A stretch of 64,000 nt of DNA, taken from NCBI GenBank assembly GCA_964350985.1, contig CAYGLK010000001.1, positions 91,018 through 155,017 of the forward strand. The letters run 5' to 3'. Position 1 is the stretch's first letter. Each line of letters begins with the position of its first letter. The notes under the pieces are model-generated. The model worked only from the letters and a program-made list of their open reading frames with translations, was not told the origin of the DNA and ran no database searches. Shown here one piece after another: positions 8,260 through 64,000 of this stretch. This stretch comes from an uncultured Candidatus Saccharibacteria bacterium (GTDB lineage: Bacteria > Patescibacteriota > Minisyncoccia > Phycocordibacterales > UBA918). The translations under genes were made by a program, and so were the position numbers.

Positions 8260-8261
8260 TT

Positions 8262-8420
8262 ATGAGTAATAATCAAACACAAACCGTTGAGCAGATTATG
8301 GAGGACACTCAACACCTCCTTCATTTACTTGCTGAAGAGCAGTTAGTAATTAGAGAAATGGTTGAAACAAGATATCGTGAACTACATGATAAAGACATTT
8401 CAGAACCTTCTGACAATTAA
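8262..8420 (+). CDS. small hypothetical protein (52 aa)
   Basis: ATG-initiated ORF MSNNQTQTVEQIMEDTQHLLHLLAEEQLVIREMVETRYRELHDKDISEPSDN filling the smc-downstream gap. Too short for the ORF track; speculative. Confidence 0.25.
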   Translation: MSNNQTQTVEQIMEDTQHLLHLLAEEQLVIREMVETRYRELHDKDISEPSDN

Positions 8421-8426
8421 AATGTT

Positions 8427-9701
8427 ATGGATTTTGAAAAATTAGGTACAAAAAAAGATGATAGATTTGATAAACCTGAAGCAGAACAGGAGACAGAAAC
8501 ATTTTTGTTTGAAATAGAACAAGATCTCCAAAATTTATCTACTAATAGTGCTGAGATTAGTAGTCTTCTTGAAAAATTACCATCAGATGATGATGGGGTT
8601 ATAGAGATAAAAGAAAGTTTAATTAACATACAGCATCGTATTAGCAGCGTCTTACAGCGGGCCATGTTATTACTTTCTCTTTCAGCTGCTTCTAGTTCGG
8701 CTTATGCGCAAGAAGGGTCATCAGCTGCTCCAGAAAATTCCCGTCCACATGTTGAGCTTGAGTATGACAACCCACAAAGATTGGCGTCAAAGAAGGTTAG
8801 AACATACAAATCTTTTATTGATAAGGAGATAAAAAAATACGAAGAATTAGCAATACCGTTCAAATCTAGGGATGGGGATTATATTGATAACTTAGAAATT
8901 GCACTTGATTCAGAACAAGAACTTAGTGAAGAACAGACAAGTATTGTACAAAGCGCAAGGGCAGCCTGGTATGTTGAACTATTACGTATTGAACGCAAAA
9001 GTATCAGAAAACATGCTAGACAAACACAGCAAGCTTATGAGGAAGCTGATACTGCACGCCAATGGCTTGCCGACCTCATACATTCAGAAGAGTATGAAAA
9101 GCGAGCTCTTGCTGAAGGTTTAAGCGAAGAAGAAATACAAGAAAGGCGTAAACGCAGTAAGCAAGATAGCACCCAATTCTTTGAGAGCTTAGCCAGCGGA
9201 GATAGTTATGGAAAGTATATTTTAAAAGGTAGTTTAGTACACCCTGAAGCATTGCGTGATCAGATTAAACTTTCTCGACAAAAGTTTTTTAATGGATTCG
9301 GTAGGGTAAATAAAATATCAGAAATTCAGGTTCATGAAATGGAACACCGCGTTACTCGTGCTAATGAAGGACTTAGTCAGCGAGCGAAAGACTTATACAC
9401 AGAAGCATTTATTACTAGACCTTATCATGATAAAGAATATGCAAACTATCTCGCGACACTTACTGAATTAGACGCTCGAAAAAAATCTTTTGAGTATCAA
9501 TTTGAAAAATTAACAAATTGGCGTTGTGGTATGCCATTTACTTCGGAACACAAAGAGCAAGCAATAAGACTGTACTATGAAGGAAAGTTCAGTAGTGATG
9601 TCGGAGAGTTTTTTAATGTTATTAAACTTGATTATTTTGAACGAATAATGAATGAACTAGCCGATATAAGTGAGTTGGATGAGAGTGAAAATATTGTTTA
9701 G
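8427..9701 (+). CDS. hypothetical protein; possibly a secreted protein starting at internal Met (8664)
   Basis: 424-aa ORF. Acidic coiled N-terminal 79 aa is followed by an internal signal-peptide-like segment, MLLLSLSAASSSAYAQE. No recognisable domain. Confidence 0.5.
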   Translation: MDFEKLGTKKDDRFDKPEAEQETETFLFEIEQDLQNLSTNSAEISSLLEKLPSDDDGVIEIKESLINIQHRISSVLQRAMLLLSLSAASSSAYAQEGSSAAPENSRPHVELEYDNPQRLASKKVRTYKSFIDKEIKKYEELAIPFKSRDGDYIDNLEIALDSEQELSEEQTSIVQSARAAWYVELLRIERKSIRKHARQTQQAYEEADTARQWLADLIHSEEYEKRALAEGLSEEEIQERRKRSKQDSTQFFESLASGDSYGKYILKGSLVHPEALRDQIKLSRQKFFNGFGRVNKISEIQVHEMEHRVTRANEGLSQRAKDLYTEAFITRPYHDKEYANYLATLTELDARKKSFEYQFEKLTNWRCGMPFTSEHKEQAIRLYYEGKFSSDVGEFFNVIKLDYFERIMNELADISELDESENIV

Positions 9702-12687: not shown

Positions 12688-12812
12688 GGGGACCTACACA
12701 AACGACACATTTCTTCGTTGTCCGGCGTAAAATATTCCTCACCGTACAATCGGTACGACTCGTCTTATTTTACTAGGACGTCTCGAACTGTATTCGCTTG
12801 TGTTGGTCTCCT
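12688..12812 (+). repeat. stem-closed conserved element L1 (contains a GTAC-core module) in the rnr/rpsP divergent region
   Basis: 5' GGGGACCTACACAAACG pairs with 3' CGCTTGTGTTGGTCTCC. Interior shares ~60 nt near-identity with 40455-40573. Confidence 0.5.
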
Positions 12813-14730: not shown

Positions 14731-14802
14731 CGTTTATTTTGACGATTTGAGTAATTTATAATATAAAGCACTGGTGCAATAAGGCACTACAGGGAGTTGT
14801 CC

Positions 14803-15165
14803 ATGCAAGTTTACTTGTCGCGACGCGTCAGTTCATTTTATTCTGACGTGACCCATATTCCGATTTCGACACTCTTGCGGTGTCTCAGGAACGGGCGGTA
14901 TGTCTTGGCGGAAAAGACAGACTCCGGTCCTGCGGAGATGATTGTCATCATTTGGGACTGCAAGATTCGGCTGCCAATTGTGCTCATCTTGATTGATGAC
15001 CAAAAGGGCAAGTGGAAGGTAACCAGGCTTTTTAAGCTTTTGCCTGGAAAGAAAACCCTTGGTCGTCGCAGAGTACCGGTATCACCTTACTGGGCTGGTC
15101 ACGCAAAGGTGATGAGTAACCGGTCTGCCAAACGCAGAGATCAACGGCCCTGCAGACGGGCCTAA
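14803..15165 (+). CDS. hypothetical Arg-rich small protein with HTH-like N-terminus (paralog 1)
   Basis: Strong RBS AGGGAG 6 nt before ATG. GC-rich. Shares the RY(V/I)(L/V)...I(I/L)(I/M)WDC...P(I/V)(V/I)(L/I)(I/V)L core with the next ORF. Confidence 0.5.
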   Translation: MQVYLSRRVSSFYSDVTHIPISTLLRCLRNGRYVLAEKTDSGPAEMIVIIWDCKIRLPIVLILIDDQKGKWKVTRLFKLLPGKKTLGRRRVPVSPYWAGHAKVMSNRSAKRRDQRPCRRA

Positions 15166-15241
15166 GTTCTTTTTGGTCTAAGTCCAGGTAAATGCGTAGC
15201 GTTTGCCTGGACAAGGGCCTCTAACTAATGGGGGAGCTGAG

Positions 15242-15586
15242 ATGAAAGCTAAATTGAAGCCAGGTCACGCCATTGAACAACTGAGAGCCAGGACTTCTCT
15301 TAGAGCTAAAACAGTAAGAAGGTGGCTTAAGGAAGATCGCTACATTGTGCTTCCCGGTACACGAAGATCTGTGGCAAATATTGGGATACTGATGTGGGAC
15401 TGTTTTGGACACCAACCAGTCATAATAGTTCTTTTGAAATCCATGGATACATATGTGGTTAAGACAGTCATGGTTCCAAGCAAAGGTAGGCGCTGGAACG
15501 GACGTCTGGTGGAAACTGATTGGAATATCAAACAAGTCAAACAACTTTGTACACTAGAATCAGCTGAAAAAACAAGGAAGAGTTGA
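15242..15586 (+). CDS. hypothetical Arg-rich small protein with HTH-like N-terminus (paralog 2)
   Basis: RBS GGGGGAG 5 nt before ATG. LRAKTVRRWLKE is a resolvase/transposase-type HTH-like segment. Paralogous to the preceding ORF. Confidence 0.5.
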   Translation: MKAKLKPGHAIEQLRARTSLRAKTVRRWLKEDRYIVLPGTRRSVANIGILMWDCFGHQPVIIVLLKSMDTYVVKTVMVPSKGRRWNGRLVETDWNIKQVKQLCTLESAEKTRKS

Positions 15587-24846: not shown

Positions 24847-24879
24847 TTAAAAGAAGTTGCTTATTAATACTTTATTATA

Positions 24880-24919
24880 AAACTAGTTTATCTATCATCA
24901 GGGATAGATAAACTAGTTT
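24880..24919. promoter_or_regulatory. palindromic operator site a (TTATCTATC-N6-GATAGATAA family)
   Basis: AAACTAGTTTATCTATC-ATCAGG-GATAGATAAACTAGTTT, 17-bp perfect arms. Lies just 3' of the TrpR-like regulator gene. Confidence 0.6.
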
Positions 24920-24929
24920 TATTATTTTC

Positions 24930-25397: not shown

Positions 25398-25492
25398 TGA
25401 TAGATAGAGACCACACTATAAATACTATCATCAGTGATAGATAAAGAGAATCACATTGGTTTAATTTATCTATCCTCAATGATAGATAAATT
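25382..25492. promoter_or_regulatory. three tandem palindromic operator sites (b, c, d) over the regulator promoter/start
   Basis: b 25382-25409 CTCTATCTATC-ATCAAT-GATAGATAGAG; c 25421-25446 imperfect aCTATC-ATCAGT-GATAGATAA; d 25463-25492 AATTTATCTATC-CTCAAT-GATAGATAAATT. Confidence 0.6.
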
Positions 25493-25502
25493 TGATGCAG
25501 AA

Positions 25503-25958
25503 TCAATAACATATGTTTTTAAAAGACAAAACCCGGCAAGCGCAGGGCTTGTCAGGTTCTAAAGTTTGGTAAGTTGGTAGTAGATTTATCAGCCAAGTCT
25601 CTACAGTCGGTGTCCGAACTGCTTCAAATTTCTTCAGGCGCGGATTAGGAGTGTGATTGGTCCGAGAACAATGAACAAAAAAGCACCGCATACATATCCA
25701 AATTTGAACTGAAAAGTGGCGGAACTTTTGATGCGGAAGATCAATTTCCTCTTGTACCAAATCGAAATTGTACAAATGATAGAGCGAACCAGCCAAAAAA
25801 ACAGCAAACCATTGAGCAGAAAAGGGAGGAGGTAGGTCACGATTTTCTCCAAAGTGAGGGTAGGCGGGGTGGAACTTGTTTACAAGAACAATACAATACT
25901 TAGAATACAAGTCAATACTTTGGGCATAGTCTTTGTTTTCGCGTATAATGGCTGGCAT
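25503..25958 (-). CDS. hypothetical protein (151 aa)
   Basis: ORF divergent from dnaG; His/Cys-containing; no domain recognised by eye. Confidence 0.4.
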   Translation of the reverse strand: MPAIIRENKDYAQSIDLYSKYCIVLVNKFHPAYPHFGENRDLPPPFSAQWFAVFLAGSLYHLYNFDLVQEEIDLPHQKFRHFSVQIWICMRCFFVHCSRTNHTPNPRLKKFEAVRTPTVETWLINLLPTYQTLEPDKPCACRVLSFKNICY

Positions 25959-40454: not shown

Positions 40455-40573
40455 AACCTACACAAACGGCACACTTCTTTGTTGTCCTGCGTAAAATATT
40501 ACTCACCGTACATTTAAGTATGGCTCGTAACATTTGACTTGGACGCCTTGAATTGCACTCGTTTGAGCAGGTC
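40455..40573 (+). repeat. stem-closed conserved element L2 (paralog of L1) directly after fba
   Basis: 5' ACCTACACAAACG pairs with 3' CGTTTGAGCAGGT. Interior CACAYTTCTTYGTTGTCCKGCGTAAAATATTMCTCACCGTACA is shared with L1. Confidence 0.5.
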
Positions 40574-43113: not shown

Positions 43114-43184
43114 AATCCTAGGGAGACAAAGCCTTTGAGTCGACTCAAAGGTTTTATCTTAAATTATCACTTAAACACAAAGAG

Positions 43185-43210
43185 TTTATCTATCATTGAG
43201 GATAGATAAA
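43185..43210. promoter_or_regulatory. palindromic operator site e, same family as the sites at 24880-25492
   Basis: TTTATCTATC-ATTGAG-GATAGATAAA, ~170 bp upstream of the glycosyltransferase gene. Confidence 0.55.
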
Positions 43211-50203: not shown

Positions 50204-51541
50204 CTAAGCCGGGACAAATGTCAGAGCTTTTCCTTGTTTGTCACTTCGTCCAGTTCTACCAATACGGTGAACATAGTCTTCGTAAGTTCCAGGAAGGTCG
50301 TAGTTAATTACGTGTGAGACATCATTAACGTGAATACCTCGAGCCGCAACGTCTGTAGCTACTAGGACTTTCACTCGACCGTCTTTGAAGTTATTCAAAG
50401 CTCGTTGTCGTTGGATGTGTGATTTATTTCCGTGGATAGCGTCAGCTTTAATTCCAGCATGAACTAATTCTAGGCTTAGTTTTTCTACACTGTGCTTCAT
50501 AGCACCAAAGATAATTACTCGAGTGAATTCATCTTCTTTAAGTAGTTCAACTAGTTTTGTAAATTTAGAACTGTGTTCGTAACGAACCACGTCTTGGGTA
50601 ATACTGTTTGTAATATCAGTCTTTCGAACAGAAACAGTAATCGGCTTACGTAAGAATTCGTGCACTAAGCCTTCAACGCTCTTTGACATTGTCGCAGAGA
50701 AGAAAAGAGTCTCACGATCTTCAGGAACGTCTTTCAAGATCTTCTTCATATCGTGAATGAATCCCATGTCTAGCATACGGTCAGCTTCATCGAAGATAAC
50801 AGTAGTGATTCCACCTGGCTTTATATGTCCACGATCCATAAGATCTTGAACTCGCCCAGGTGTACCAATAATAAATTGATTCTTTCGTCTAAGACCACTG
50901 ATTTGTGGGCGAATATTCATTCCACCAACACAAACAGTAGAATAGATATTCATTCGAGGTGTTAGTTTACGAAGTTCTTGTTCAACTTGGATAGCTAGTT
51001 CACGTGTTGGAGTCAAGATTAAAGTTTGACGTCCGCGATCTTTAAGAGTCTTTTGAATCACAGGGATCAAAAAAGCAGCTGTTTTTCCAGTACCTGTTTG
51101 CGCTAGGCCAACAACGTCATGACCGTCTAAGATGTAAGGAATAACCTGATCTTGAATAGCACTAGGAACAACTAGTCCACTGGCAGCAATAGCATCAGCT
51201 AGATACTTATCTAGACCAAAATCATTAAAAGTATGCTTTGCAACATATGGTGCTTCAGTTACTGGCTTTACTGGATTTAAGTTAATGAATTTTGAAACAT
51301 CGAAAGTACTCATTACTCGGCCTCCTCGTCCACCACGAGAACCTCCTCGGCTACCGCCGAAACTTCGTCCACCACTAAAACGACGTCCACCACCTGATGA
51401 TGAACCTCCTCCAGATCGACTGCTTCCAGATCGAAAGCCTGAACTGGGTCGGCGGCTACCGCTTGAACTTGAATTACTACTAAAAGGGCGACGGGTACGT
51501 CCCGCCATGGGTCGACTAGGTCGACCAGATGTATTTGGCAT
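50204..51541 (-). CDS. DEAD-box ATP-dependent RNA helicase with N-terminal Arg/Gly/Ser-rich tail
   Basis: Q-motif, AQTGTGKT, PTRELA, DEAD (IFDEADRMLDMGF), SAT, HRIGRTGR. The first ~75 aa are RGG/SR low complexity. Confidence 0.85.
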   Translation of the reverse strand: MPNTSGRPSRPMAGRTRRPFSSNSSSSGSRRPSSGFRSGSSRSGGGSSSGGGRRFSGGRSFGGSRGGSRGGRGGRVMSTFDVSKFINLNPVKPVTEAPYVAKHTFNDFGLDKYLADAIAASGLVVPSAIQDQVIPYILDGHDVVGLAQTGTGKTAAFLIPVIQKTLKDRGRQTLILTPTRELAIQVEQELRKLTPRMNIYSTVCVGGMNIRPQISGLRRKNQFIIGTPGRVQDLMDRGHIKPGGITTVIFDEADRMLDMGFIHDMKKILKDVPEDRETLFFSATMSKSVEGLVHEFLRKPITVSVRKTDITNSITQDVVRYEHSSKFTKLVELLKEDEFTRVIIFGAMKHSVEKLSLELVHAGIKADAIHGNKSHIQRQRALNNFKDGRVKVLVATDVAARGIHVNDVSHVINYDLPGTYEDYVHRIGRTGRSDKQGKALTFVPA

Positions 51542-51750
51542 TTTTTATTTAATTTAGGGGAATTTAAAAATTCCGGGCTGTGCAGAATATAATCAAATGG
51601 TCACGTGAGCCCAAACACAAGGGAGGGGAAGTGACGGCTATTTGTGACTCAAGAGCCCTACACGAGAATCTTAAGGTGACAAGAGAGTAACACTAATACT
51701 AAAAATAGTCAAATATTCTGTAATTGATAGCTTTATCAGAGCTTTATAAA

Positions 51751-51820
51751 TAAAAAACCTCACCTGGAGGTTCAGATGGGGCTTGGTCCGGACGCACCTA
51801 CGGTGCGTCCGGTTAGGTAA
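51751..51820 (-). terminator. 70-nt terminator module, copy 1 (identical to 52491-52560)
   Basis: Minus-strand CCGGACGCACCGTAGGTGCGTCCGG, then ACCTCCAGGTGAGGT, then TTTTTTATTTAT. Confidence 0.6.
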
Positions 51821-51852
51821 TTTTCTTCCGCTGGTTGCGACGCTGAGGTTGC

Positions 51853-52407
51853 CTACAGTCTGACTGCCAAACACGCGCCAAGGCAATGGACTGTCTTTCG
51901 GAACGTCTCACCATACCTCCCGTCTATCTTTGGATAGATTTCCGGGAACCAAGTCCTTTTCATCCCGTGCGGTTGAGAACCCTCAAGCCTAACAAGAGAT
52001 CCAAGACAGATCAGTCTTTCCGGGGTGTTGCCCTGAGCTTTCATGGTCTTTATGTAGGCATCACACTCCGCAATGTCGGCCGGACGAAGTCCTTTTTCTT
52101 TCATCTTTTGGATGGTGTCGTACGGCTGAGCATCGTAGTTAAATCCGACAAGATGCATGGTCAGCTCTTGATCGACCGTTTTTTCAGGCACGACGTAAAC
52201 GTTGTTGCTGTTTACTGAATTGACAACCATTGCCGGTTGGGCTGGGACAAAAACCGTTACAGCAGATGAGATGGTGTCCTCGCCGCAACAAACCTGGTAG
52301 ACTTTTAGCGAGATGTTGTACAGTACCAGGAGGCCAAAAAGTGAAAGGACGATTCCGGACCAGATCTTTTGAAGAATTGTCATGACAATTGCCTTGTCTC
52401 TACTCAA
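51853..52407 (-). CDS. hypothetical membrane-anchored protein (184 aa)
   Basis: N-terminal TM helix. GC-richer than surroundings. Followed by the repeated terminator module. The antisense plus-strand ORF 51886-52218 was rejected. Confidence 0.4.
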   Translation of the reverse strand: MSRDKAIVMTILQKIWSGIVLSLFGLLVLYNISLKVYQVCCGEDTISSAVTVFVPAQPAMVVNSVNSNNVYVVPEKTVDQELTMHLVGFNYDAQPYDTIQKMKEKGLRPADIAECDAYIKTMKAQGNTPERLICLGSLVRLEGSQPHGMKRTWFPEIYPKIDGRYGETFRKTVHCLGACLAVRL

Positions 52408-52490
52408 CGGAATGCTGAGCTCTTTCTGTTTTATAACAAATATAACGAAAAAGTCAATATTTCGTTAGGTACACACATAATATTTAAATA

Positions 52491-52560
52491 TAAATAAAAA
52501 ACCTCACCTGGAGGTTCAGATGGGGCTTGGTCCGGACGCACCTACGGTGCGTCCGGTTAA
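52491..52560 (-). terminator. 70-nt terminator module, copy 2
   Basis: Identical over ~70 nt to 51751-51820. Confidence 0.6.
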
Positions 52561-52958
52561 CGGCCTATGGTCTTTTTCTTGTTCGGCCATTTGACCATCA
52601 CCCACAGTATCCGTAACACGGAAAGGATAAAAAGCAGGCCAAAAAACGATATGTTAAACGCTAGAGTAAGACCAAAGAAAACACCAAGGTCTTTATCCTT
52701 TACTGCCCATAAGAAGGGAACCAAGACTCCGCCAAATGTTGTGACGATAGATAGTCTTAACCCCTCACGACAGAGTGTGCTACCTGTCTCGTGTAGTGTC
52801 GGGGCTACAAAGGCGAAGACTATTGCAGCAATGACCAGTCCGAAGATGGCGCTGGCTACAGCTCCGTTTGAAAACAGAGCTGTATAGGTAGAGTGACGAG
52901 CGTCATACAGCAGGCCAAGCATGACGCCTAGGCTGGCGCAGAACAGAAGTTTTTTCAT
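52557..52958 (-). CDS. hypothetical polytopic membrane protein (133 aa)
   Basis: Four predicted TM helices. Confidence 0.4.
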   Translation of the reverse strand: MKKLLFCASLGVMLGLLYDARHSTYTALFSNGAVASAIFGLVIAAIVFAFVAPTLHETGSTLCREGLRLSIVTTFGGVLVPFLWAVKDKDLGVFFGLTLAFNISFFGLLFILSVLRILWVMVKWPNKKKTIGR

Positions 52959-53127
52959 GGAACTTTGCTCCCATGATAGGAAGGGGGGTGAGCAGTACTG
53001 ATTATAATAATCTCATAAAATTACTATTGATGATACTAAGCCAGCTGTTTATATAACCTATTGCTCGGTTTGATTGTTATTTATCGCTATTTTGTGTTAA
53101 TATACGCGCGCAAAAACGTTTGTCATT

Positions 53128-53904
53128 TTGTTTCTAATGCTTTCATTCATCAATACAGCTTACGCGGCCGGAGACGGTATTAAGGTTGCTCTTAAGCCAT
53201 ATGTTGTTGGTGAACTTTGGGGTATTCCAATTACGGCCACTCTTATTACTACTTGGTTGACGATGGCTCTTTTGATCGTTGCTGCTTACTATTTTACTCG
53301 TAAACCACAGCTGATCCCTAAAAAAGTACAAAGTATGGCCGAATTGGTAGTGGGTGGCGTTTATGATTATATGGCTGATGTGCTAGAAAGTCGTAAACTA
53401 GCACTACAATACTTTCCAATCGTGATGACAATCTTTATCTTTGTCTTAGCTTTAAACTGGATCGGACTACTTCCAGGAGTAACTTCAATTGGTTTTAATC
53501 ACGATGGTCACTTTACTCCACTCCTATATCCGGCGGCGACTGACTTAAATATCACGGTCGCTTTTGCGATTGTAGCTTTCTTAACTATAGAGATCGCTGG
53601 TGTGGTAGCTTTAGGACTGTGGAAGTATGGTGGGAAGTTTATTAACTTCTCTTCACCGCTAGCTTTTATTATTGGTATTATTGAACTAATAAGTGAATTA
53701 GCTCGTCTAATCTCATTCTCATTTCGTCTCTTCGGTAATATTTTTGCCGGTAAGACGCTACTGGTAGTGATAATTTTCTTCGTACCTTATATAGTGCCAG
53801 TCCCGCTGTATGGGTTTGAAGTCTTTGTTGGGTTTATTCAGGCATTCATTTTTGCTATCCTAACCTTGTTCTTTATTAAAATTGCCATTGCAGAACCGCA
53901 TTAG
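53128..53904 (+). CDS. atpB: F0F1 ATP synthase subunit a
   Basis: RLFGNIFAG motif with the conserved Arg. Confidence 0.85.
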   Translation: MFLMLSFINTAYAAGDGIKVALKPYVVGELWGIPITATLITTWLTMALLIVAAYYFTRKPQLIPKKVQSMAELVVGGVYDYMADVLESRKLALQYFPIVMTIFIFVLALNWIGLLPGVTSIGFNHDGHFTPLLYPAATDLNITVAFAIVAFLTIEIAGVVALGLWKYGGKFINFSSPLAFIIGIIELISELARLISFSFRLFGNIFAGKTLLVVIIFFVPYIVPVPLYGFEVFVGFIQAFIFAILTLFFIKIAIAEPH

Positions 53905-54036
53905 TTGATAATCACGAGTCCCGTAAATAATTGGGCGTGACTCGTACTTGTCCATTAATCTTTAAAGCAATTGCTTTTAAGTAGTCTTTTCTTCCCAGAA
54001 ATTTAGACTCAGATGGCACATTATTATTTAAAATAA

Positions 54037-54312
<276 letters not shown>

Positions 54313-54345
54313 TTCTTCCAATATCACTTCGTCTGCTTTGTCGTA

Positions 54346-54415
54346 GTGCAGAAAAATTTACTCAACGTACTACTAAGTACGTATCGCAAATTTTTCTTTC
54401 TACTTCGCGCATACT
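54346..54415 (+). repeat. GTAC-core conserved intergenic element, copy C2 (between atpE and atpF)
   Basis: CAGAAAAATTTActCAacGTACtactaaGTACgtaTCgCAAATTTTTCtttctacttCGCGCATA. Confidence 0.6.
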
Positions 54416-54476
54416 CGTAATATTGAAAGAATTAGAAAAAGATTATTACCACTTTAGTCACTAAAATCTAATCACT

Positions 54477-54926
54477 ATGGAAGATATCATTAACGCATTT
54501 GGAATCGATGCCAGACTCATAATCATCCAAATTGTAAACTTCGCTATTTTGATGGCGGTGTTGGGATATTTCCTATACAAACCGATTCTCAAAATGTTGC
54601 AGGATCGCGAAGATAAGATTAAGCAAGGAATTGCAGACGCTGAACAAGCGGCTGTAGCTCTAAGTCAGGCTGAAGCTGGTAAAAAAGAAATTCTTACTGC
54701 AGCACACTCTGCTGCCGAAGAAGTAGCTCAAAGAGCAAAAGGAAGCGCTGAAGAGGCTGCAGCCGACATTGTTAGAGGTGCTGAAGATAAGGCGACTCAA
54801 GTTTTGAAGACAGCAGCTGAAAAAGCGGAACAACTTCGAACGCAAATTCAAAAAGAAGCTGAAGCTGAAATCGCTAAAACAGCGATCCTGGCTGCAGAAA
54901 AAATTCTTCGTGAAAAAACTTCTTAA
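54477..54926 (+). CDS. atpF: F0F1 ATP synthase subunit b
   Basis: N-terminal TM helix followed by a long Ala/Glu/Lys-rich helix. Confidence 0.8.
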   Translation: MEDIINAFGIDARLIIIQIVNFAILMAVLGYFLYKPILKMLQDREDKIKQGIADAEQAAVALSQAEAGKKEILTAAHSAAEEVAQRAKGSAEEAAADIVRGAEDKATQVLKTAAEKAEQLRTQIQKEAEAEIAKTAILAAEKILREKTS

Positions 54927-54929
54927 ATT

Positions 54930-55319
54930 ATGAAGGACACTTATATTAAAGCTTCATTAGAATTACTTAAAGCTGGGGAACCAGTAGAAGTAGTTCTAAA
55001 AAATATGCAGCAAGTAATGGCAAAGAAAGGCCATAGCTCTTTGTATGGCAGTGTCCTTCAGGGTCTTGTTACTCAAATAGAGTCTCAAGATGAGCTAGCG
55101 CAACCTATGGTTATCGTTGCTAACGCAAAAGATGTAGATGCAGAAAGAGTTAAATCACTACTAAAAGAAATTGGCAGTGAAGCAGAGAATTATTCAACAA
55201 CGGTAGATGAAACTGTTGTTGGCGGAATGATTGTCTCGCACAATTACAAAATGATCGACGAGAGCTATAAAACCAAACTTAAAAACCTTTATCAATCAAT
55301 TGTCTCAAAGACCAACTAA
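54930..55319 (+). CDS. atpH: F0F1 ATP synthase subunit delta (short, 129 aa)
   Basis: C-terminal TVDETVVGGMIVSHNYKMIDESYKTKL matches the OSCP/delta C-terminus. Position in operon. Confidence 0.7.
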   Translation: MKDTYIKASLELLKAGEPVEVVLKNMQQVMAKKGHSSLYGSVLQGLVTQIESQDELAQPMVIVANAKDVDAERVKSLLKEIGSEAENYSTTVDETVVGGMIVSHNYKMIDESYKTKLKNLYQSIVSKTN

Positions 55320-55335
55320 TCACTAAATTTTTACT

Positions 55336-56904
55336 ATGAACCCAACCATCATCGAAAGAATCAAGAAAGAAATTCAAGGACTGGAAACAAATAGTCAACC
55401 ACAAGAAATTGGTAAGGTTACCAACGTGGGTGACGGTGTAGCTGAAATCGACGGACTCCTAAGTGCGCAAATGATGGAGATGGTAGTTTTCGCTACTCAT
55501 GATGGACTTTCACTGAAAGATACTCTAGATCAAACAACAGTACTTTATGGTTTGGTACTTAACCTTGAAGAGGAGAGTGTAAAAGTGGTGATCTTGGGAG
55601 ACAGTGGTTTGGTTAAGGAGGGGATGACTGTTTTCCGAACTGGAAAGCTACTCTCAGTTCCAGTTGGTGAAGCGATTGTTGGTCGAGTAGTAAATGCTCT
55701 TGGTGAGATTATCGACGGTAAAGGTCCGATTGAAACTAAGCGTGATATGCCTGTAGAACGAGTGGCTTACGGTGTAATGGATCGTTCAAGTGTAAACGAA
55801 CCAATTCACACTGGTATCAAGGCTATCGACTCAATGATTCCTATCGGACGTGGTCAGCGAGAATTAATTATTGGTGATCGTGGTACTGGGAAGACTACAA
55901 TTGCGATTGATACTATTATCAATCAGAAGTACGAACCAAAAGAAAAGCGCCCAATTTGTATCTACGTTGCTATTGGTCAGAAGCGTTCTAAGACTGCCAA
56001 CATCATGGCTCAATTAGAAGCAGCTGGAGCAATGGAATACACAACTATTATTGCTACTTCAGCTTCTGAAGCTTCACCGATGCTTTTCCTGGCACCGTTT
56101 ACTGGAATGGCTATCGGAGAATATTTTATGGAACAAGGAAAGGATGTCTTGGTAATCCTAGACGACCTTTCTAAGCACGCTGTTGCGTATCGACAAATGT
56201 CGCTTCTGCTCCGACGTCCACCAGGACGTGAAGCGTATCCTGGAGATATTTTCTATCTACACTCACGACTTCTAGAGCGGTCAGCAAAACTTTCAAAAGA
56301 ACTTGGTAGTGGATCGATCACCGCTTTGCCTATCATTGAAACTCAAGAAGGAGATGTGTCTGCTTATATTCCAACCAACGTAATTTCTATTACTGACGGA
56401 CAGATCTTCCTTGAAGGTGAGTTGTTCAACAAAGGAATTCGTCCAGCTCTAAACGTAGGTATTTCAGTATCACGTGTAGGGTCTTCAGCGCAAACTAAAG
56501 CGATGAAAGCAGTGTCTGGAAAGATTCGTCTTGAGCTAGCTCAGTTCCGAGAACTGGAAGCTTTTATGCAATTTGCTTCAGATCTAGATGAAGATACTAA
56601 ACAGAGAATCGACAGCGGCCGAAAGTATGTGGAGTTGTTGAAACAAAAACAAAACAATCCAATGCCTTTCTACAAGCAAGTAGTATCTATCTATGGTGCT
56701 AACAACGGTTTGCTCGATGGTGCTAAGGCTGAGGATGTCCAAAAAATAGAAAAGGCTTACCATGACTTTATTGAACGAGATCGAAAAGAAATCTTGACTT
56801 CAATTGAAACAGAGCGCGCTCTAAGTGACGAACTGCAAGCAGATCTAAAGAAATCAATTTCTGATTTTAAAGAAGCTAATTCTGATTTTTATTCAAAAGC
56901 ATAA
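55336..56904 (+). CDS. atpA: F0F1 ATP synthase subunit alpha
   Basis: GDRGTGKT P-loop. Confidence 0.95.
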
Positions 56905-56942
56905 ATAGCCCACGAGGCATTATTAGCTTTCATTCAAATTAA

Positions 56943-57848
56943 ATGGCACTCAAACAAATCAAAAACAAAATAATTTCTACCAAAAAAACTGGCAAAGTGA
57001 CTAAGGCCATGGAGTCGGTTTCAGCGGTGAAGATGCGTAAGAGTCAGGCTCGAGCTTTTGAAAGCCGACCTTATATCAGAGCCGCAATGCGTATTTTGTC
57101 TCGTTTGTCTGACACTCGCGACGTAGAGCAGCATGAATTTTCTAAGGTTAGAACTTCAACTAAAAAGTTGGTTGTAATTGTCACTAGTGACAAAGGTCTG
57201 GCTGGAAGCGTTAACAGTGCTGTTTTACGGAAGGTGGAACTAATGAAAAAAGACGGTGAGATTTTTGATGTTGTTACTATTGGACGCAAAGCCTTTGAGT
57301 TTGCTGAGCGTGAGAAGTTGGTCATCAAAGCTCACTACCTAAATGTTAGTGACGGAGTGACTTTATCTGATGTTTACGAGATGTCAGATGTAGTAATGAA
57401 AGCTTTTGCAGCTGACCTGACTTACGGAATCGTTGAAGTTGTTTACCAAAACTTTATTTCTACATTTGAACAAAACCCAACTAAGCGGCAAATCTTGCCG
57501 CTAGATCCAAAAGAAGTAAAAGAAATAATGCTAGACATCCGTCCAAAGACTGGAAAGTTTAGCGACGAAATAGTGGTTGAAGGGGCGACTTTGCAATATG
57601 AAATCGAACCAAGTGCTAGTGCTGTTTTGGACGTCTTGATTCCACAACTAGTACAGATCTTGATCTTCCACGCTCTACTTGAAAGTAAGGCGTCAGAACA
57701 CTCTTCAAGAATGGTGGCGATGAAGAACGCAACTGATAAATCTAAAGAAGTAGCCAAAGCTCTGACTTTGGTTTACAACAAAGCCAGACAAGCCGCTATT
57801 ACAGCTGAGGTAGCTGAGATAACCGGAGGTATGGAAGCTATGAAATAA
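56943..57848 (+). CDS. atpG: F0F1 ATP synthase subunit gamma
   Basis: N-terminal IKNKIISTKKTGKVTKAMESVSAVKMRK and C-terminal helix motifs. Confidence 0.9.
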   Translation: MALKQIKNKIISTKKTGKVTKAMESVSAVKMRKSQARAFESRPYIRAAMRILSRLSDTRDVEQHEFSKVRTSTKKLVVIVTSDKGLAGSVNSAVLRKVELMKKDGEIFDVVTIGRKAFEFAEREKLVIKAHYLNVSDGVTLSDVYEMSDVVMKAFAADLTYGIVEVVYQNFISTFEQNPTKRQILPLDPKEVKEIMLDIRPKTGKFSDEIVVEGATLQYEIEPSASAVLDVLIPQLVQILIFHALLESKASEHSSRMVAMKNATDKSKEVAKALTLVYNKARQAAITAEVAEITGGMEAMK

Positions 57849-57967
57849 ACTTGCGATACGACTCCATATGCTTTGTCGCTAAAATATTTTAGCCTAGGGC
57901 CTCTGGAGCCGTCTCACAAGTTTATGAGATACATTTGAAAGATTATTAAGCCAAACACAATTATTAA

Positions 57968-59347
<1,380 letters not shown>

Positions 59348-59372
59348 GTAAATAGCTAATCTGTTTTGTTGC

Positions 59373-59442
59373 TACGAAAAAATTTTCTTTCACTGTACAT
59401 TTAAGTACACCTCAATAAAATTTTTTCTAGCGCCGCGCATCT
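59373..59442 (+). repeat. GTAC-core conserved intergenic element, copy C3 (between atpD and atpC)
   Basis: CGAAAAAATTTTCtttCActGTACatttaaGTACaccTCaataAAATTTTTTCtaGCGCCGCGCAT. Confidence 0.6.
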
Positions 59443-59490
59443 TAACCATTTATTTAACTCTCTTGAGGAGACGATTAAATTTATAAATAT

Positions 59491-59742
59491 ATGGCAACAC
59501 AAAAACTACTAAAACTAAACATCTCAAAAGTTGACGGCTCTCTCTTCGATGAAGAGGTGATTTCAGTTACAGTGCCTGGTACAGAAGGAGAGATGACTTT
59601 GTTAGCAGAACACGCTCCAATCGTCTCCGTGCTTCGTCCAGGGGTTATTACTGCACGCAAAGCGGATGGTACAACAGCAGAATTTCCAGTTGAAGTTGGT
59701 ACTCTCGAAGTCAGTCACAACACAGTGACGATCCTACTTTAA
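59491..59742 (+). CDS. atpC: F0F1 ATP synthase subunit epsilon (N-terminal beta-sandwich only, 83 aa)
   Basis: LNISKVDGSLFDEEVISVTVPGTEGEMTLLAEHAPIVSVLRPGVI; lacks the C-terminal helical hairpin. Confidence 0.85.
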   Translation: MATQKLLKLNISKVDGSLFDEEVISVTVPGTEGEMTLLAEHAPIVSVLRPGVITARKADGTTAEFPVEVGTLEVSHNTVTILL

Positions 59743-59774
59743 AACTATTTATATAAAAATGGGTTGTGTTAAGG

Positions 59775-59810
59775 CCCGCCACTATGATGGTGGCGGGCCT
59801 TGGTTTTTTG
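59775..59810 (+). terminator. terminator after atpC
   Basis: AGGCCCGCCAC-TATGATG-GTGGCGGGCCT followed by TGGTTTTTT. Confidence 0.7.
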
Positions 59811-59825
59811 CGCTTAAGCTGTCCT

Positions 59826-60212
59826 TCAGTAATACTTCAGGAAGTCAGTCAATGCAGCATGAACCTCCCTGATCATCACTAGACCGTAAAGGGTTGCCTT
59901 GTAACGTGTATCCAGATCGCCGACGATCCTAACCTCGTCTTTGATGGCTTCCCAAATCACACTTCCGAAGCTCCCCTCAACTCCGCCGTCAAGGAAGAAG
60001 GAGTGATCGACGTTTGGTTGCTCGATGATTTTCGCCAGAGATTCAACTACGTGAACCAAAGTGGTCCTGTATTGAATCCGAGCGTAGTGATCAGGGACCA
60101 CGCTGTAGATTCTCACTCGGTGGCGGTCACGACAGAGAGAGACGAGAGGTCGGTCCAATTCGTGACCTATGACCACAAAGGTGTAAGGGGGTTTTTTGGG
60201 AGGTGTCGACAT
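59826..60212 (-). CDS. hypothetical protein (128 aa) on the GC-rich island
   Basis: ATG with an AGGAA-type RBS. GC-rich relative to neighbours. No domain recognised. Confidence 0.45.
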   Translation of the reverse strand: MSTPPKKPPYTFVVIGHELDRPLVSLCRDRHRVRIYSVVPDHYARIQYRTTLVHVVESLAKIIEQPNVDHSFFLDGGVEGSFGSVIWEAIKDEVRIVGDLDTRYKATLYGLVMIREVHAALTDFLKYY

Positions 60213-60334
60213 GAGCTAGGTTCCTGTCTGGGAGATAGATCGAAAGGTCTGAAAATCCATTTTATTTATAACACACTAACGATATTAGGTAAATATAATA
60301 TATATCACCAAATAATTTTGCTCTGGTTATTTTT

Positions 60335-60405
60335 TATTAAGTATTCATTTGTTTGACTAAAGTGTTTACAGCCAAAAAATCCTCAATATGAAGATAGGGG
60401 AGATG
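60335..60405 (-). pseudogene. duplicated fragment of the ung 3' region
   Basis: TGTTTACAGCCAAAAAATCCTCaATAtgAAGATAGGGGAGA is ~90% identical to 61057-61097 inside genuine ung, and the similarity extends leftwards. Confidence 0.6.
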
Positions 60406-60552
60406 ACCTTGCTCGCAGAACACGCTCCAATCGTCTCTGTGCTTCGTCCAAGGGTTATTACTGCACGCAAAGCGGATGGTACAACAGCAGAATTTCCAGT
60501 TGAAGTTGGTACTCTCGAAGTTAGTCACAATACTGTTACTATCTTACTTTAA
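60398..60552 (+). pseudogene. duplicated 3' fragment of atpC (codons ~33-83)
   Basis: GAGATGACCTTGCTCGCAGAACACGCTCCAATCGTCTCTGTGCTTCGTCCAAGGGTTATTACTGCACGCAAAGCGGATGG...TTACTTTAA is ~93% identical to 59590-59742. Confidence 0.7.
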
Positions 60553-60638
60553 GAATATTTGCATAATAAAAAGAAAGAACCGCCGCACCGAATGGGGAAG
60601 TCGGGACGGATGTCCTTTCTTCCGCCTGGTGTGGCGGT

Positions 60639-60887
60639 TCAGCTTGCTTTTTTTGGCAATTCGCCGCGAAAAATGAATCTGTGGGCATCGCTGCCAGTAA
60701 GAACAATGGTGCCGCCGTCGCATTTCGTTACCTTGACCGCCGACGTTTTTCCAATAAAGCTTGCATCTTGGATGCATGCATCGACACTAGACCTAGGCAT
60801 AGAAAGCACTGCGAGCAACAGACTGGCGCTGGCAAGCACTATTGCCAGCAAAACACTCTTGATGAACAATGGAAATAATGGGAACAT
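60639..60887 (-). CDS. small secreted/membrane-anchored protein (82 aa) on the GC-rich island
   Basis: Strong RBS GAGGAG 6 nt before ATG. Signal-peptide-like MFPLFPLFIKSVLLAIVLASASLLLAVLS. The antisense plus-strand ORF was rejected. Confidence 0.4.
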   Translation of the reverse strand: MFPLFPLFIKSVLLAIVLASASLLLAVLSMPRSSVDACIQDASFIGKTSAVKVTKCDGGTIVLTGSDAHRFIFRGELPKKAS

Positions 60888-61010
60888 GGGACACTCCTCG
60901 TTTGTCAGCGTTTGGGTTGAGCTTTTATATAATACAATGTTAGTATCACATGTCAAGTCAGTGAAGATTTTCTAGTCAATTTGAGGTAAAGTACGCAATA
61001 ATTTTTTATT

Positions 61011-61673
61011 TTACCAAACAATTTCATTTTCACCTTGACCCTTTAAATAATCATTAGTTTTACTAAAATGTTTACAGCCAAAAAATCCTCTATAAGAAGA
61101 TAGGGGAGAGGGATGTGGCGCAGTTAAGATTAAGTGCTTACTGTTATCAATCAATTTTTTCTTTGCTTCAGCAGGCTTTCCCCAGAGTAAGAAAACAACG
61201 TGATCTTTTTCTTCGGAAATTTTCTGAATGATTGCATCAGTAAATCTCTCCCAGCCTAAGCCTTGATGTGATCCGGGAGCATCTTCTTTTACTGTTAAAG
61301 TGGTGTTAAGTAAAAGGATTCCTTGTTCAGCCCAATGTTTTAGATCGCCAGACTCTGGCATCACTTTTCCTACATCAGAAGTAACTTCTTTATAAATATT
61401 TCGCAGTGATGGTGGAAGAAGAATTCCTTCAGGTACTGAAAAACTTAAGCCGACGGCTTGTCCGGCACCATGATAAGGATCTTGACCCAGTATAACTACT
61501 TTAGTTTCTCTTAGAGGGCAAAGTGAGAAAGCTCTGAAGACGTTGTCTTTGTTGGGGAAGACCTTTTCAGTCTGGTACTTTTCTTCAATGACTCGCTCGA
61601 GGTTTTTGACATAAGTAAGTTCAAGCTCTTCTTTTAAAGCATTCTGCCAGTCTTGAGGTAGTTCCTGAAACAT
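61011..61673 (-). CDS. ung: uracil-DNA glycosylase, family 1
   Basis: VVILGQDPYHGAGQA motif and the HPSPLS C-terminal motif. Confidence 0.9.
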   Translation of the reverse strand: MFQELPQDWQNALKEELELTYVKNLERVIEEKYQTEKVFPNKDNVFRAFSLCPLRETKVVILGQDPYHGAGQAVGLSFSVPEGILLPPSLRNIYKEVTSDVGKVMPESGDLKHWAEQGILLLNTTLTVKEDAPGSHQGLGWERFTDAIIQKISEEKDHVVFLLWGKPAEAKKKLIDNSKHLILTAPHPSPLSSYRGFFGCKHFSKTNDYLKGQGENEIVW

Positions 61674-61721
61674 ATCTATACCTTACTATGCTTAGGTCTT
61701 TCTGTTAAGAACACCAGTCTT

Positions 61722-61985
61722 TTGCTCCGTGGGCTTATGCTAATATTTAAATATATGCTTGAATCACATACCCGTAGCGTAGTTAAAGGAATGACTTGGA
61801 GAATCATTGCTTCTGGCACCACTATGGCAATTGTCTATGTTTTGACGGGTAATTTAGAATTAGTTGCTAGTGTTGGAGCAATTGATGTTGCTTTGAAGAT
61901 TTTCTTTTATTACTTACACGAAAGAAGTTGGGGTAAGGTTGGCTGGGGAATTTTACCAAATAGATTATCTAGACTAAAGCGCTAA
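61722..61985 (+). CDS. small membrane protein (DUF2061-like)
   Basis: 87 aa; two TM helices. Confidence 0.4.
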   Translation: MLRGLMLIFKYMLESHTRSVVKGMTWRIIASGTTMAIVYVLTGNLELVASVGAIDVALKIFFYYLHERSWGKVGWGILPNRLSRLKR

Positions 61986-62854
61986 GCAAGCTTTTGACAC
62001 GAAGGACAAAAATGCGTACCGCGACCAGCGACGCGCATTTTTTTGATTTCAGTCTTACACCTAGGGCAAGGAGTTTTTTGTTTTCCGAATACCTTCAAGT
62101 AGTTAGTATAGTTTCCTTTGCTTCCGTCTGTATCTTTAAAGTGCTGGAAAGTAGTGCCACCAACGCTAATGGATTTATTCATCACGTCACCACTAGCTTT
62201 TCCAATACTTCTGGCTTCTTTTACGGTAATGGTGTTAGCTTTTCTTTCGGGGTGTACCTTAGCTTTAAATAACGCTTCATCGACATAAATGTTACCCAAA
62301 CCAGCAATGAAAGTCTGATCTAAAAGTACGGCCTTGATACTACGGTTCTTTTTTTGTAGTCCTAGGTAAAAAGACTTTTGATCAAAATCAGGATGAATTG
62401 GTTCTGGTCCAAAACGACTTCGTGCTTGGGCTACCCTAGCTTTGTTAGCGATTTCGATATAACCAAACTTACGCATGTCATTAAAGAAAAGAGCTGACCC
62501 GTTTTCCAAGTAAAAAGCTATCCTGGTGTGTTTGTTCGGTAAGTTTTTAGTATCTGCTTCAGATAAAGAGTGTCCACCGCCACTGACTGACTTTTTTCTA
62601 TCAACAAAAAAGAACTGCCCAGTCATTTTCAGGTGTGCAAGGAGATATAAGTCTGGTTCAGCTTTAAAGCTAAAAATCATCAGCTTACCAACTCGATCAA
62701 TACTGGAAAAAGTTTTATTTTTGAGTATCTCACTAAAAGTATAGTTTCCACGAGCAGTTTTTGGATTAAAAACCTCTATTTTCTTGATTTTTTTATTTTT
62801 AATCTTATGCAAAAGCTGTAGACGAACAGTTTCTACTTCTGGGAGTTCTGGCAT
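61982..62854 (-). CDS. mutM: formamidopyrimidine-DNA glycosylase
   Basis: N-terminal MPELPEVETV and C-terminal zinc finger CPRCKTEIKKMRVAGRGTHFCPSCQ. Confidence 0.9.
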   Translation of the reverse strand: MPELPEVETVRLQLLHKIKNKKIKKIEVFNPKTARGNYTFSEILKNKTFSSIDRVGKLMIFSFKAEPDLYLLAHLKMTGQFFFVDRKKSVSGGGHSLSEADTKNLPNKHTRIAFYLENGSALFFNDMRKFGYIEIANKARVAQARSRFGPEPIHPDFDQKSFYLGLQKKNRSIKAVLLDQTFIAGLGNIYVDEALFKAKVHPERKANTITVKEARSIGKASGDVMNKSISVGGTTFQHFKDTDGSKGNYTNYLKVFGKQKTPCPRCKTEIKKMRVAGRGTHFCPSCQKLA

Positions 62855-62940
62855 GGTTTTATTGTATGACCTTAAGACTAAAATGCCAAATTACGTTTAA
62901 CTCTAGCCAAAAAGGGATTATTTGCCTATAGTAGGCACAT

Positions 62941-63156
62941 ATGGCCCATCCATTTACCAAAATATTTGATTTAGCTTTGAAAAAAAGTTCAAGCGAAGAG
63001 AACTTTGTCTTAATCGAAGCTGAGAAAATTATTAAAAAAGGCTACTCAGCCACAGAGATTCATACTGTGCTTACCAAACTGCAAAAATCACTCATAGACC
63101 AAACTGAAGCTGAAATTGTCTCTGAAGCAGCTGAAGAGGTGAGTCGGTACTTGTAA
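62941..63156 (+). CDS. hypothetical small acidic protein
   Basis: 71-aa ORF only. Confidence 0.3.
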   Translation: MAHPFTKIFDLALKKSSSEENFVLIEAEKIIKKGYSATEIHTVLTKLQKSLIDQTEAEIVSEAAEEVSRYL

Positions 63157-63204
63157 TACAAACGATCAAGGCCGACTGGGGTTACCAATCGGCCTATCTT
63201 TCAG

Positions 63205-63561
63205 TCACGTTCTCGTTACCGTAAAGGCTCTCTTGTACAGAGCTGTATTTTTTTCAATGCTTGCTGAACAAAGAATACCAGCTAGCCTAGGTAACTTTTC
63301 CTTGAATAATTCCGGCAACCGGGTCGCAGCAGAAGAACCTGCGACAGAAATTATGTAGCAGTCGCCAATGTCTTGGTATCCGTTGACACCAAATAAATCT
63401 CGAACATCTTCCGCTGAAATTCGACGGCGAATGCAACCGCTGTCTCTAAAATTGGAGTTCCTGAAAGCCAAGACTATTTTGTCAAACTTGCCTTCACTTA
63501 ACGCTTCTGGTGTTATCAGTACCAGAACTGTTTCAGGAACACCTAAGACGTTAGCAATCAT
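63205..63561 (-). CDS. hypothetical protein (118 aa)
   Basis: ORF only; weak resemblance to a Rossmann-like nucleotide-binding fold. Confidence 0.35.
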   Translation of the reverse strand: MIANVLGVPETVLVLITPEALSEGKFDKIVLAFRNSNFRDSGCIRRRISAEDVRDLFGVNGYQDIGDCYIISVAGSSAATRLPELFKEKLPRLAGILCSASIEKNTALYKRAFTVTRT

Positions 63562-63860
63562 AGAGCACCCCGTGGTTTAGATTGAAAGTACTTTTGGCAC
63601 AAATTTTGTGCCGAAGGAACTGCTTTACCTAAATATTACACATTTAGGTAAGGGTGACAATTTATATATGTGTAGAGACGCAGTGTCAGGTTTACCTGGT
63701 GATCTTAAAAGCTGCCCAGATGCCCAAAATAGCTCCAAGTGAGCTAAAAATGATCGATGAGAAAGAGAAGTAGGCAGCACCCCAGAGCAGTGGAATATAC
63801 CCACCAATAATGCCCCCAACAGAAAGTAGTAACCACATTATTTTTTTACTCTCCATAGGG

Positions 63861-64000
63861 TTAAAAGTTAAGATAGGTGATCGTTAGTTGAAGAACGGTC
63901 GCAAATGAAACCCAAGCTAAGTAGGGAATATTTACATAGGTTACCCAAGGAACGTACTGATAGATAGCGTAAAGCGCCCAGACCAAGGTACCTAATACTA
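63861..64000 (-). CDS. TspO/MBR-like membrane protein, C-terminal part (partial at window end)
   Basis: ...YVPWVTYVNIPYLAWVSFATVLQLTITYLNF resembles the TspO C-terminus (YLxWVSFA..LN..IW.LN). Confidence 0.4.
   Translation of the reverse strand, partial: VLGTLVWALYAIYQYVPWVTYVNIPYLAWVSFATVLQLTITYLNF

Follow-up and report, generated by a model that had tools for sequence, protein, structure and literature searches.

Chromosomal hotspots are flexible slots between conserved core genes that are exchanged by homologous recombination in the flanks. In homology-facilitated illegitimate recombination (HFIR), the textbook outcome is that recipient DNA is replaced or deleted. Its hallmark in transformable bacteria is an illegitimate joint at 3-10 bp beside a homologous anchor (de Vries & Wackernagel 2002; Prudhomme et al. 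2002; both according to PMC6382021). We analyzed a stretch of 64,000 nucleotides (hereafter the window) from contig CAYGLK010000001.1 of an uncultured Candidatus Saccharibacteria bacterium and found that the convergent junction between atpC (ATP synthase epsilon subunit) and ung (uracil-DNA glycosylase, UDG) is present twice in tandem, with a different small gene in each copy (p128 and p82, named for the lengths of their products). We lean towards a genuine two-allele tandem duplication of this junction, which would have arisen by illegitimate plus homologous recombination between diverged alleles. Gene gain and exchange are poorly documented in the very small genomes of Patescibacteria, and this locus keeps legible marks of one recombination event in the form of a joint, relic gene ends and allelic differences. 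It represents a known kind of event with unusually legible marks in an unusual organism; as an instance of gene gain driven by recombination it is neat but commonplace, and it is not a new type of system.

The locus resembles HFIR in having a possible homologous anchor on one side, a joint of 3-10 bp (here GAGA) on the other and heterologous DNA between them. It differs in that the recipient and donor versions would both have been retained as a tandem pair, and the process is here proposed from sequence in an uncultured Patescibacterium. Merodiploid duplications formed during transformation of Streptococcus pneumoniae are reportedly unstable, with direct repeats that can recombine, and are said to arise through alternative pairing at long pre-existing repeats and to cover many kilobases. 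Our locus has units of only ~0.8 kb that meet at a 4-nt microhomology, and its copies appear to be different alleles; the likeness is that recombination of incoming DNA yields a tandem duplication (Johnston et al. 2013, PMC3784515). Slippage or template switching at microhomologies can also duplicate DNA in tandem, independently of RecA, with head-to-tail units and a single few-base joint. Such duplicates are identical when formed, whereas in our locus the two spacers have nothing in common and most differences between the gene ends are synonymous. As in hotspot slots, different accessory genes are found beside atpC in related strains and haplotype breakpoints fall in flanking core genes; unlike them, the locus is of single-gene scale, lies in a reduced genome (~0.5 Mb) and seems to have two alleles stacked in one chromosome.

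The duplicated atpC/ung junction

The locus forms the 3' end of the ATP-synthase operon, where atpC (plus strand) and ung (minus strand) converge; a DUF2061 gene and then fpg lie beyond ung. Its features, with primes denoting gene fragments, are as follows.

59491-59742, plus strand: intact atpC, 83 aa, beta-sandwich domain only (Pfam PF02823, E 7e-21); the 3' part, 59590-59742, is repeat copy 1, compared codon by codon with copy 2
59768-59804, no strand: hairpin 1, 17-bp, GC-rich, with a T-run (terminator scan; fold -32.7 kcal/mol, z -3.8)
59826-60212, minus strand: p128, 128 aa, AGGA ~10 nt before ATG
60213-60304, minus strand: AT-rich upstream region of p128, with the motif TTTATAACACA(C/A)TAA at 60265-60279 that is conserved with the related contig L085
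60305-60403, minus strand: ung', last 33 codons and stop of a UDG gene, in frame, with one nonsense codon
60337-60528, minus strand: chimeric open reading frame (ORF) of 63 aa with a GTG start, spanning the fused fragments
60400-60569, plus strand: atpC', last 50 codons and stop of atpC, then 17 nt of downstream sequence (Pfam PF02823 on a 54-aa ORF)
60577-60640, no strand: hairpin 2, long, GC-rich, flanked by an A-run and a T-run and overlapping the p82 stop codon (fold -49.8 kcal/mol, z -5.8)
60639-60887, minus strand: p82, 82-aa ORFan, GAGGAG 7 nt before ATG
60929-60956, minus strand: putative p82 promoter, near-consensus sigma-70-type (TTGACA, 16 nt, TATTAT; 11/12 matches)
61011-61673, minus strand: intact ung, family-1 UDG, 220 aa (Pfam PF03167, E 9e-19); the 3' part, 61011-61109, is the counterpart of ung'

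Two head-to-tail units, 59590-60403 and 60400-61109, directly adjoin each other in the same order and orientation, each running from an atpC 3' end through a strong hairpin terminator and one small minus-strand gene with its own upstream region to an ung 3' end. The two hairpins are placed as putative bidirectional terminators, the first between atpC and p128 and the second for atpC' and p82. Repeat search and pairwise alignment showed that the atpC 3' copy at 60396-60569 is 90% identical to 59586-59759 over 174 nt; within it, the coding repeat (60400-60552 versus 59590-59742) has 142 of 153 positions in common (93%), stop codon included. The core of the second repeat, 60337-60403 versus 61043-61109, matches at 60 of 67 positions (90%), and homology to ung then runs on in frame to a stop at 60305-60307, giving 75 identical positions out of 99 across ung' as a whole. 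Offsets between the copies are 810 nt for atpC and 706 nt for ung. The duplication of both gene ends, which the original prediction had proposed, was thereby confirmed; its atpC coding repeat stood, and its second ung range (61035-61100) was a few bases off. These copies are the two longest diverged direct repeats in the window and are placed exactly as a tandem-unit model would have them; chance is therefore not a credible explanation.

A single new joint, ung'|atpC', connects the units at 60400-60403, where GAGA is common to both parental sequences; when it is extended to 60396-60403, 7 of 8 bases match the parents. The joint thus falls within the range described for HFIR, and both the head-to-tail adjoining units and the single few-base joint were found as expected of a tandem duplication. 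The units do not match along their whole length: no similarity at the DNA or protein level was seen between the spacers (562 and 458 nt) or between the proteins encoded in them, hence the qualifier "two-allele".

This joint also bears on whether the structure is an assembly artefact, in which a single contig was assembled from two co-occurring strains, one having p128 and the other p82 as the gene between atpC and ung. The genome is metagenome-derived, related populations hold diverged haplotypes at the locus, and the contigs that Logan assembled from run ERR3534985 end precisely at the k = 31 repeat edges (60492 and 52530), as they would in a strain mixture too. However, the sequence that the joint has in common with its parents is far shorter than any assembler overlap, so the joint must exist in reads; the in-frame stop shows that ung' is not part of another strain's working ung; and a strain chimera would swap alleles rather than make a head-to-head joint of two gene interiors. 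We consider an artefact improbable, and the structure is probably not one. The independent Logan assembly of the same run was 100% identical to the window over 60492-64000 (3,509 aligned bases), and its contig ends at the very point in the atpC repeat at which a 31-mer graph should fork, indicating that both repeat versions are present in the ERR3534985 sample.

Both fragments look like the ends of once-functional genes. In ung', one Arg codon is changed to a stop (AGA to TGA at 60383-60385; outgroups keep A there), yet SPLSSY*GFFGCKHFSQTNEYL is retained in frame, corresponding to the conserved C-terminal UDG motif HPSPLS...GF.GC.HF. The tail, LIKNNQSKIIW, is typical of the C-termini of homologues: 8 of its last 11 residues differ from the resident ung, with frame, length and family-typical pattern kept. 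The position of ung' is that of the working ung in L085, and its sequence marks ung' as a relic of a diverged ung allele. In atpC', a conserved glycine is changed to Arg, and a run of 70 nt (60452-60521) is identical to copy 1. The 63-aa chimeric ORF exists as originally listed, like those of p128 and p82; as a gene it is unsupported, with its GTG start, and neither it nor the 54-aa atpC' ORF has a record elsewhere in the assembly index. The index has no record of p128 or atpC either.

Genes in the two spacers

Informative relatives of the locus were found through exact-protein look-ups. One of them, the metagenomic contig L085, has the gene order atpD, atpC, P0128 (opposite strand) and ung in a single copy, with no gene fragments and no p82. 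P0128 (132 aa) was the one true homologue of p128 among 1.84 billion representatives (full phmmer E 4e-16, 37% identity; 38% over 97 aa by BLASTP); two further phmmer matches were low-complexity false hits. The p128 family comprises two known clusters, whose members are similar over their full length and occupy a common genomic position. Moreover, unit 1 is collinear with L085 from end to end (atpC, terminator, p128, promoter-like motif and ung tail), including a hairpin at the position equivalent to 59768-59804, and the conserved motif at 60265-60279 is likely an extended -10 element on the minus strand, as judged from its sequence. The occurrence of P0128 between atpC and ung in L085 shows that p128 is an inherited neighbor of atpC and not recent cargo. 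Compared with the L085 arrangement, the extra material is atpC', p82 and one ung 3' end. The original view of an insertion that brought in two recently acquired cargo genes therefore needs revision: only the second unit is extra.

Searches of 5.8 billion clustered proteins, of viral contigs and of the profile libraries detected no homologue of p82. The gene was also called in the independent Logan assembly and is recorded there only, not in NCBI. It has two cysteines and a hydrophobic N-terminus, apparently a signal peptide or membrane anchor. Neither p128 nor p82 had a significant match in Pfam, PHROGs, PADLOC or NCBIfam; the search of the 5.8 billion clustered proteins returned only the query proteins themselves, and scans of viral contigs were empty. 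AlphaFold2 models were too weak for use (predicted local distance difference test scores of 44 from the single sequence and 55 from a two-sequence alignment), and Foldseek gave no match in PDB at E <= 0.001.

As originally predicted, both spacer genes are atypical in composition, with GC of 0.50 (p128) and 0.48 (p82) against 0.40 for the window, and GC at third codon positions (GC3) of 0.57 and 0.51. All but one of the 41 large ORFs of the window had a GC3 of 0.24-0.40; the exception was a 184-aa ORF at 51853-52407. The predicted rarity of Shine-Dalgarno sites also held, since both p128 and p82 have such a motif and only 1 of the 41 large ORFs does, a count that used longest-ORF starts and may have missed some true starts. 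This suggests that core genes use initiation independent of Shine-Dalgarno sites and that the accessory genes have a foreign origin or a distinct mode of expression. If the locus is confirmed by reads, p128 and p82, the latter apparently secreted or membrane-anchored, would be candidates for strain-specific functions.

Two self-contained genes of atypical composition might also be mobile single-gene cassettes, brought by an integron-like or small integrative element to an attachment site between atpC and ung. Such a reading could draw on a second locus in the window, where identical 71-nt modules follow two other GC-rich genes (see below), and on relatives that carry different genes in the same slot; like integron cassettes, the units here are compact, contain single genes in tandem and each end in a structured element. 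We nevertheless regard it as highly improbable. Its boundaries would be long coding fragments of the neighboring genes atpC and ung (153 and 99 nt) meeting at a 4-nt joint, rather than short attachment cores; p128 has a syntenic counterpart in a relative; both genes have a promoter of their own, which integron cassettes do not; and by eye the hairpins show no resemblance to attC. There is no tRNA in the window, PADLOC and PHROGs gave no match, and no integrase was seen among the neighbors examined: the only ORFs of at least 150 aa within ~5 kb are the ATP-synthase genes, ung and fpg, and the smaller neighbor examined encodes the DUF2061 protein. Site-specific integration, one of the two mechanisms initially suggested, accordingly finds no support. 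The other, a tandem junction duplication with different GC-rich genes in the spacers, is supported, and the locus does behave as a hotspot.

Divergence of the copies and proposed history

Differences between the copies were mostly synonymous. The comparison of atpC' with atpC gave 9 synonymous and 2 non-synonymous changes (ratio of non-synonymous to synonymous rates, dN/dS, 0.07), and that of the ung core copies 4 and 2 (dN/dS 0.10). Strict neutrality of both copies was rejected (p = 1e-5), as was a model in which one copy is constrained while the other decays freely (p = 0.008 for atpC, p = 0.002 combined). Together with the functional-looking tail of ung', this pattern implies that most of the divergence is older than the event and that the fragments derive from a different functional allele. 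Two changes are clearly deleterious, and each affects a fragment: ung' has a stop in place of Arg, and atpC' has Arg in place of Gly. Three outgroups keep the ancestral base at both sites, which fits a brief period of relaxed constraint after truncation.

The differences are also unevenly spread, the 70-nt identical run having p = 0.002 under uniformity, and this run could be a homologous crossover or conversion tract. To its right, copy 2 has the genome's commoner codon at all 6 synonymous differences; to its left, copy 1 does so at 2 of 3. The outgroups were too diverged to polarize the synonymous differences. Codon choice gives a weak hint that copy 1 left of the run and copy 2 right of it are the native parts, which fits a reciprocal exchange of the kind that would pass through a circular intermediate. 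Both the run and the codon hints would be compatible with the homologous anchor and mosaicism of HFIR.

We propose that the locus existed in related strains in two forms that had diverged, allele A (atpC, p128, ung), whose arrangement is present in a single copy in L085, and allele B (atpC, p82, ung). The alleles would have been joined by one illegitimate end-join at GAGA and by homologous pairing in the gene end common to both, giving the product atpC, p128, ung'|atpC', p82, ung. Either unit may have been the incoming one. One possible route is uptake of DNA from a related strain followed by HFIR. Core com genes for DNA uptake are reported to be conserved across phyla of the Candidate Phyla Radiation, within which natural transformation, dependent on comEC, is documented for Saccharibacteria only (PMC10633639), making an uptake route plausible by analogy. 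Another would be Campbell-type integration of, or unequal crossover with, a circularized atpC3'-spacer-ung3' segment, possibly within the 70-nt identical run; a circular intermediate and HFIR of linear DNA are indistinguishable on these data. In either case, full-length atpC and ung remain intact, p128 and p82 each retain their own promoter and terminator, and two truncated relics lie in the middle, where decay has begun. The direct repeats might later delete either unit, and the structure may be an intermediate in the swapping of small genes. If confirmed by reads, it would offer a concrete natural example of gene gain through recombination between diverged strains in this group.

A single allele could also have given rise to both units if slippage or template switching at GAGA had duplicated atpC3'-p128-ung3' in place, the copies had drifted and the second p128 had been replaced by p82. 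We judge this unlikely, although head-to-tail units with a 4-nt microhomology joint are classic for RecA-independent tandem duplication and the fragments bear the nonsense and Gly-to-Arg changes. At least two further events would be required, and no trace of p128 or its promoter is seen in spacer 2. The synonymous excess is unlikely if one copy decayed freely (p = 0.002-0.008), and the ung' tail resembles a functional allele rather than a decayed copy. Swapping the inner spacer alone would itself need an allele B donor.

Several points weigh against recombination between two alleles as the origin of the locus. No independent Logan contig crosses the joint, all of them ending at repeat edges. 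The substitution counts are small (17 changes in total), and if the functional copies went on converting the fragments, this could look like purifying selection on them. Allele B, with full-length atpC, p82 and ung, was found in no database searched, p82 itself being without a homologue. No com gene occurred among ten Pfam-scanned ORFs of the window, and no dedicated search for competence genes was made. Finally, the nearest sampled relatives are distant (ung at most 67% identical), which precludes assignment of donor and recipient.

The atpC-proximal position in relatives and other features of the window

The window belongs to a small genome of the Candidate Phyla Radiation, of the Paceibacteria/Kaiserbacteria type. 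Its AtpD is 84-89% identical to the best GTDB representatives, and the identity of ung homologues is at most 67% throughout. A search for an empty site gave none: ung was within 6 kb of atpC in 0 of 80 AtpD-based GTDB loci, and among 80 ung-based metagenome loci the order fpg-DUF2061-ung occurred in 3 only, with atpC nearby in none. The comparison with relatives that the original prediction called for was thus informative through L085, with its single-copy junction, and yielded no empty site.

Other relatives carry different genes beside atpC. On contig L082, a 98-aa membrane ORF comes after atpC, fpg lies beyond it in the opposite orientation, and both ung and the DUF2061 gene are absent. On two others (L167 and L168), ung and ApbE are followed by an atpC on the opposite strand. 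In L169 and L170, two contigs from sister samples, atpC faces a 128-aa ORF with no relationship to p128; remote homology to p128 was rejected (hhalign probability 0.2%). The two slot proteins are 58% identical to each other, with GC3 of 0.49-0.59 and GGAG upstream of their genes. These contigs are 100% identical for 6.2 kb and then 47-94% identical over a stretch at ~6200-8670 that includes a 164-aa ORF, ApbE, the slot ORF and atpC; the switch at ~6200 looks like a recombination breakpoint between diverged haplotypes. Judging from these sequences, natural populations harbor diverged haplotypes of the region next to atpC, and recombination takes place between them; the raw material for the proposed event would therefore exist. 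Given that relatives hold different small GC3-rich genes with Shine-Dalgarno-like motifs here, the position behaves as a variable slot; together, the window and the related contigs suggest that a small, hypervariable slot for genes adjoins the ATP-synthase operon.

A broader and more tentative possibility, which we would not yet expect to hold, is that throughout the clade the site just downstream of atpC is an exchangeable slot for small GC3-rich ORFan genes with their own Shine-Dalgarno-like motifs, perhaps along with other operon ends such as that upstream of atpB. Strains would swap genes by recombining within shared terminator modules and within the 3' ends of the core genes on either side, and the stacked structure would be a trapped swap intermediate, providing a route by which an extremely reduced genome could add genes instead of just replacing them.

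We noted additional features in the relatives and at the operon. ApbE and the slot ORF are ~170 nt further apart in L170 than in L169. AtpD of L082 belongs to the same 90% cluster as that of the window, and in this relative atpD and atpC are separated by a hicB/hicA toxin-antitoxin pair (3002-3434). AtpC is only 83 aa long in the window and in L085, L167 and L169, with the PF02823 match covering residues 7-82 and no space for a C-terminal helical (inhibitory) domain. This domain is typical of bacterial epsilon subunits. An Rfam scan of 51000-62000 gave no meaningful match.

A second locus of similar organization (51745-52958) flanks the opposite end of the ATP-synthase operon, with a DEAD-box helicase gene on one side and atpB on the other. 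It contains two minus-strand ORFs with no Pfam match, of 184 aa (51853-52407, GC3 0.55) and 133 aa (52557-52958, GC3 0.50, membrane-like). At the 3' end of each is a 71-nt module, 100% identical between 51745-51815 and 52489-52559, and a Logan contig ends exactly at this repeat (52530). By eye, the module consists of a GC hairpin and a terminator hairpin; an integron reading was set aside, as these are two separate hairpins and not one attC-like imperfect palindrome. Three small GC3-rich accessory ORFs in the window bear a Shine-Dalgarno-like motif, namely p128, p82 and, by eye, the 133-aa ORF.

Elsewhere in the window, a GC-rich patch (up to 0.53) at 14797-15586, between trmD and rpoB, contains adjoining plus-strand ORFs of 122 and 127 aa, which look like diverged paralogues with a W-D-C motif and a hydrophobic stretch in common; the 122-aa ORF had no Pfam match. 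The palindrome TTTATCTATC-N-GATAGATAAA occurs at three intergenic sites (24871-24923, 25462-25506 and 43174-43210; inverted-repeat families I1 and I2) and could be a common terminator or protein-binding site. In addition, a 57-nt direct repeat with 91% identity was found at 12692-12748 and 40456-40512, 27.8 kb apart, each copy near the end of a large ORF.

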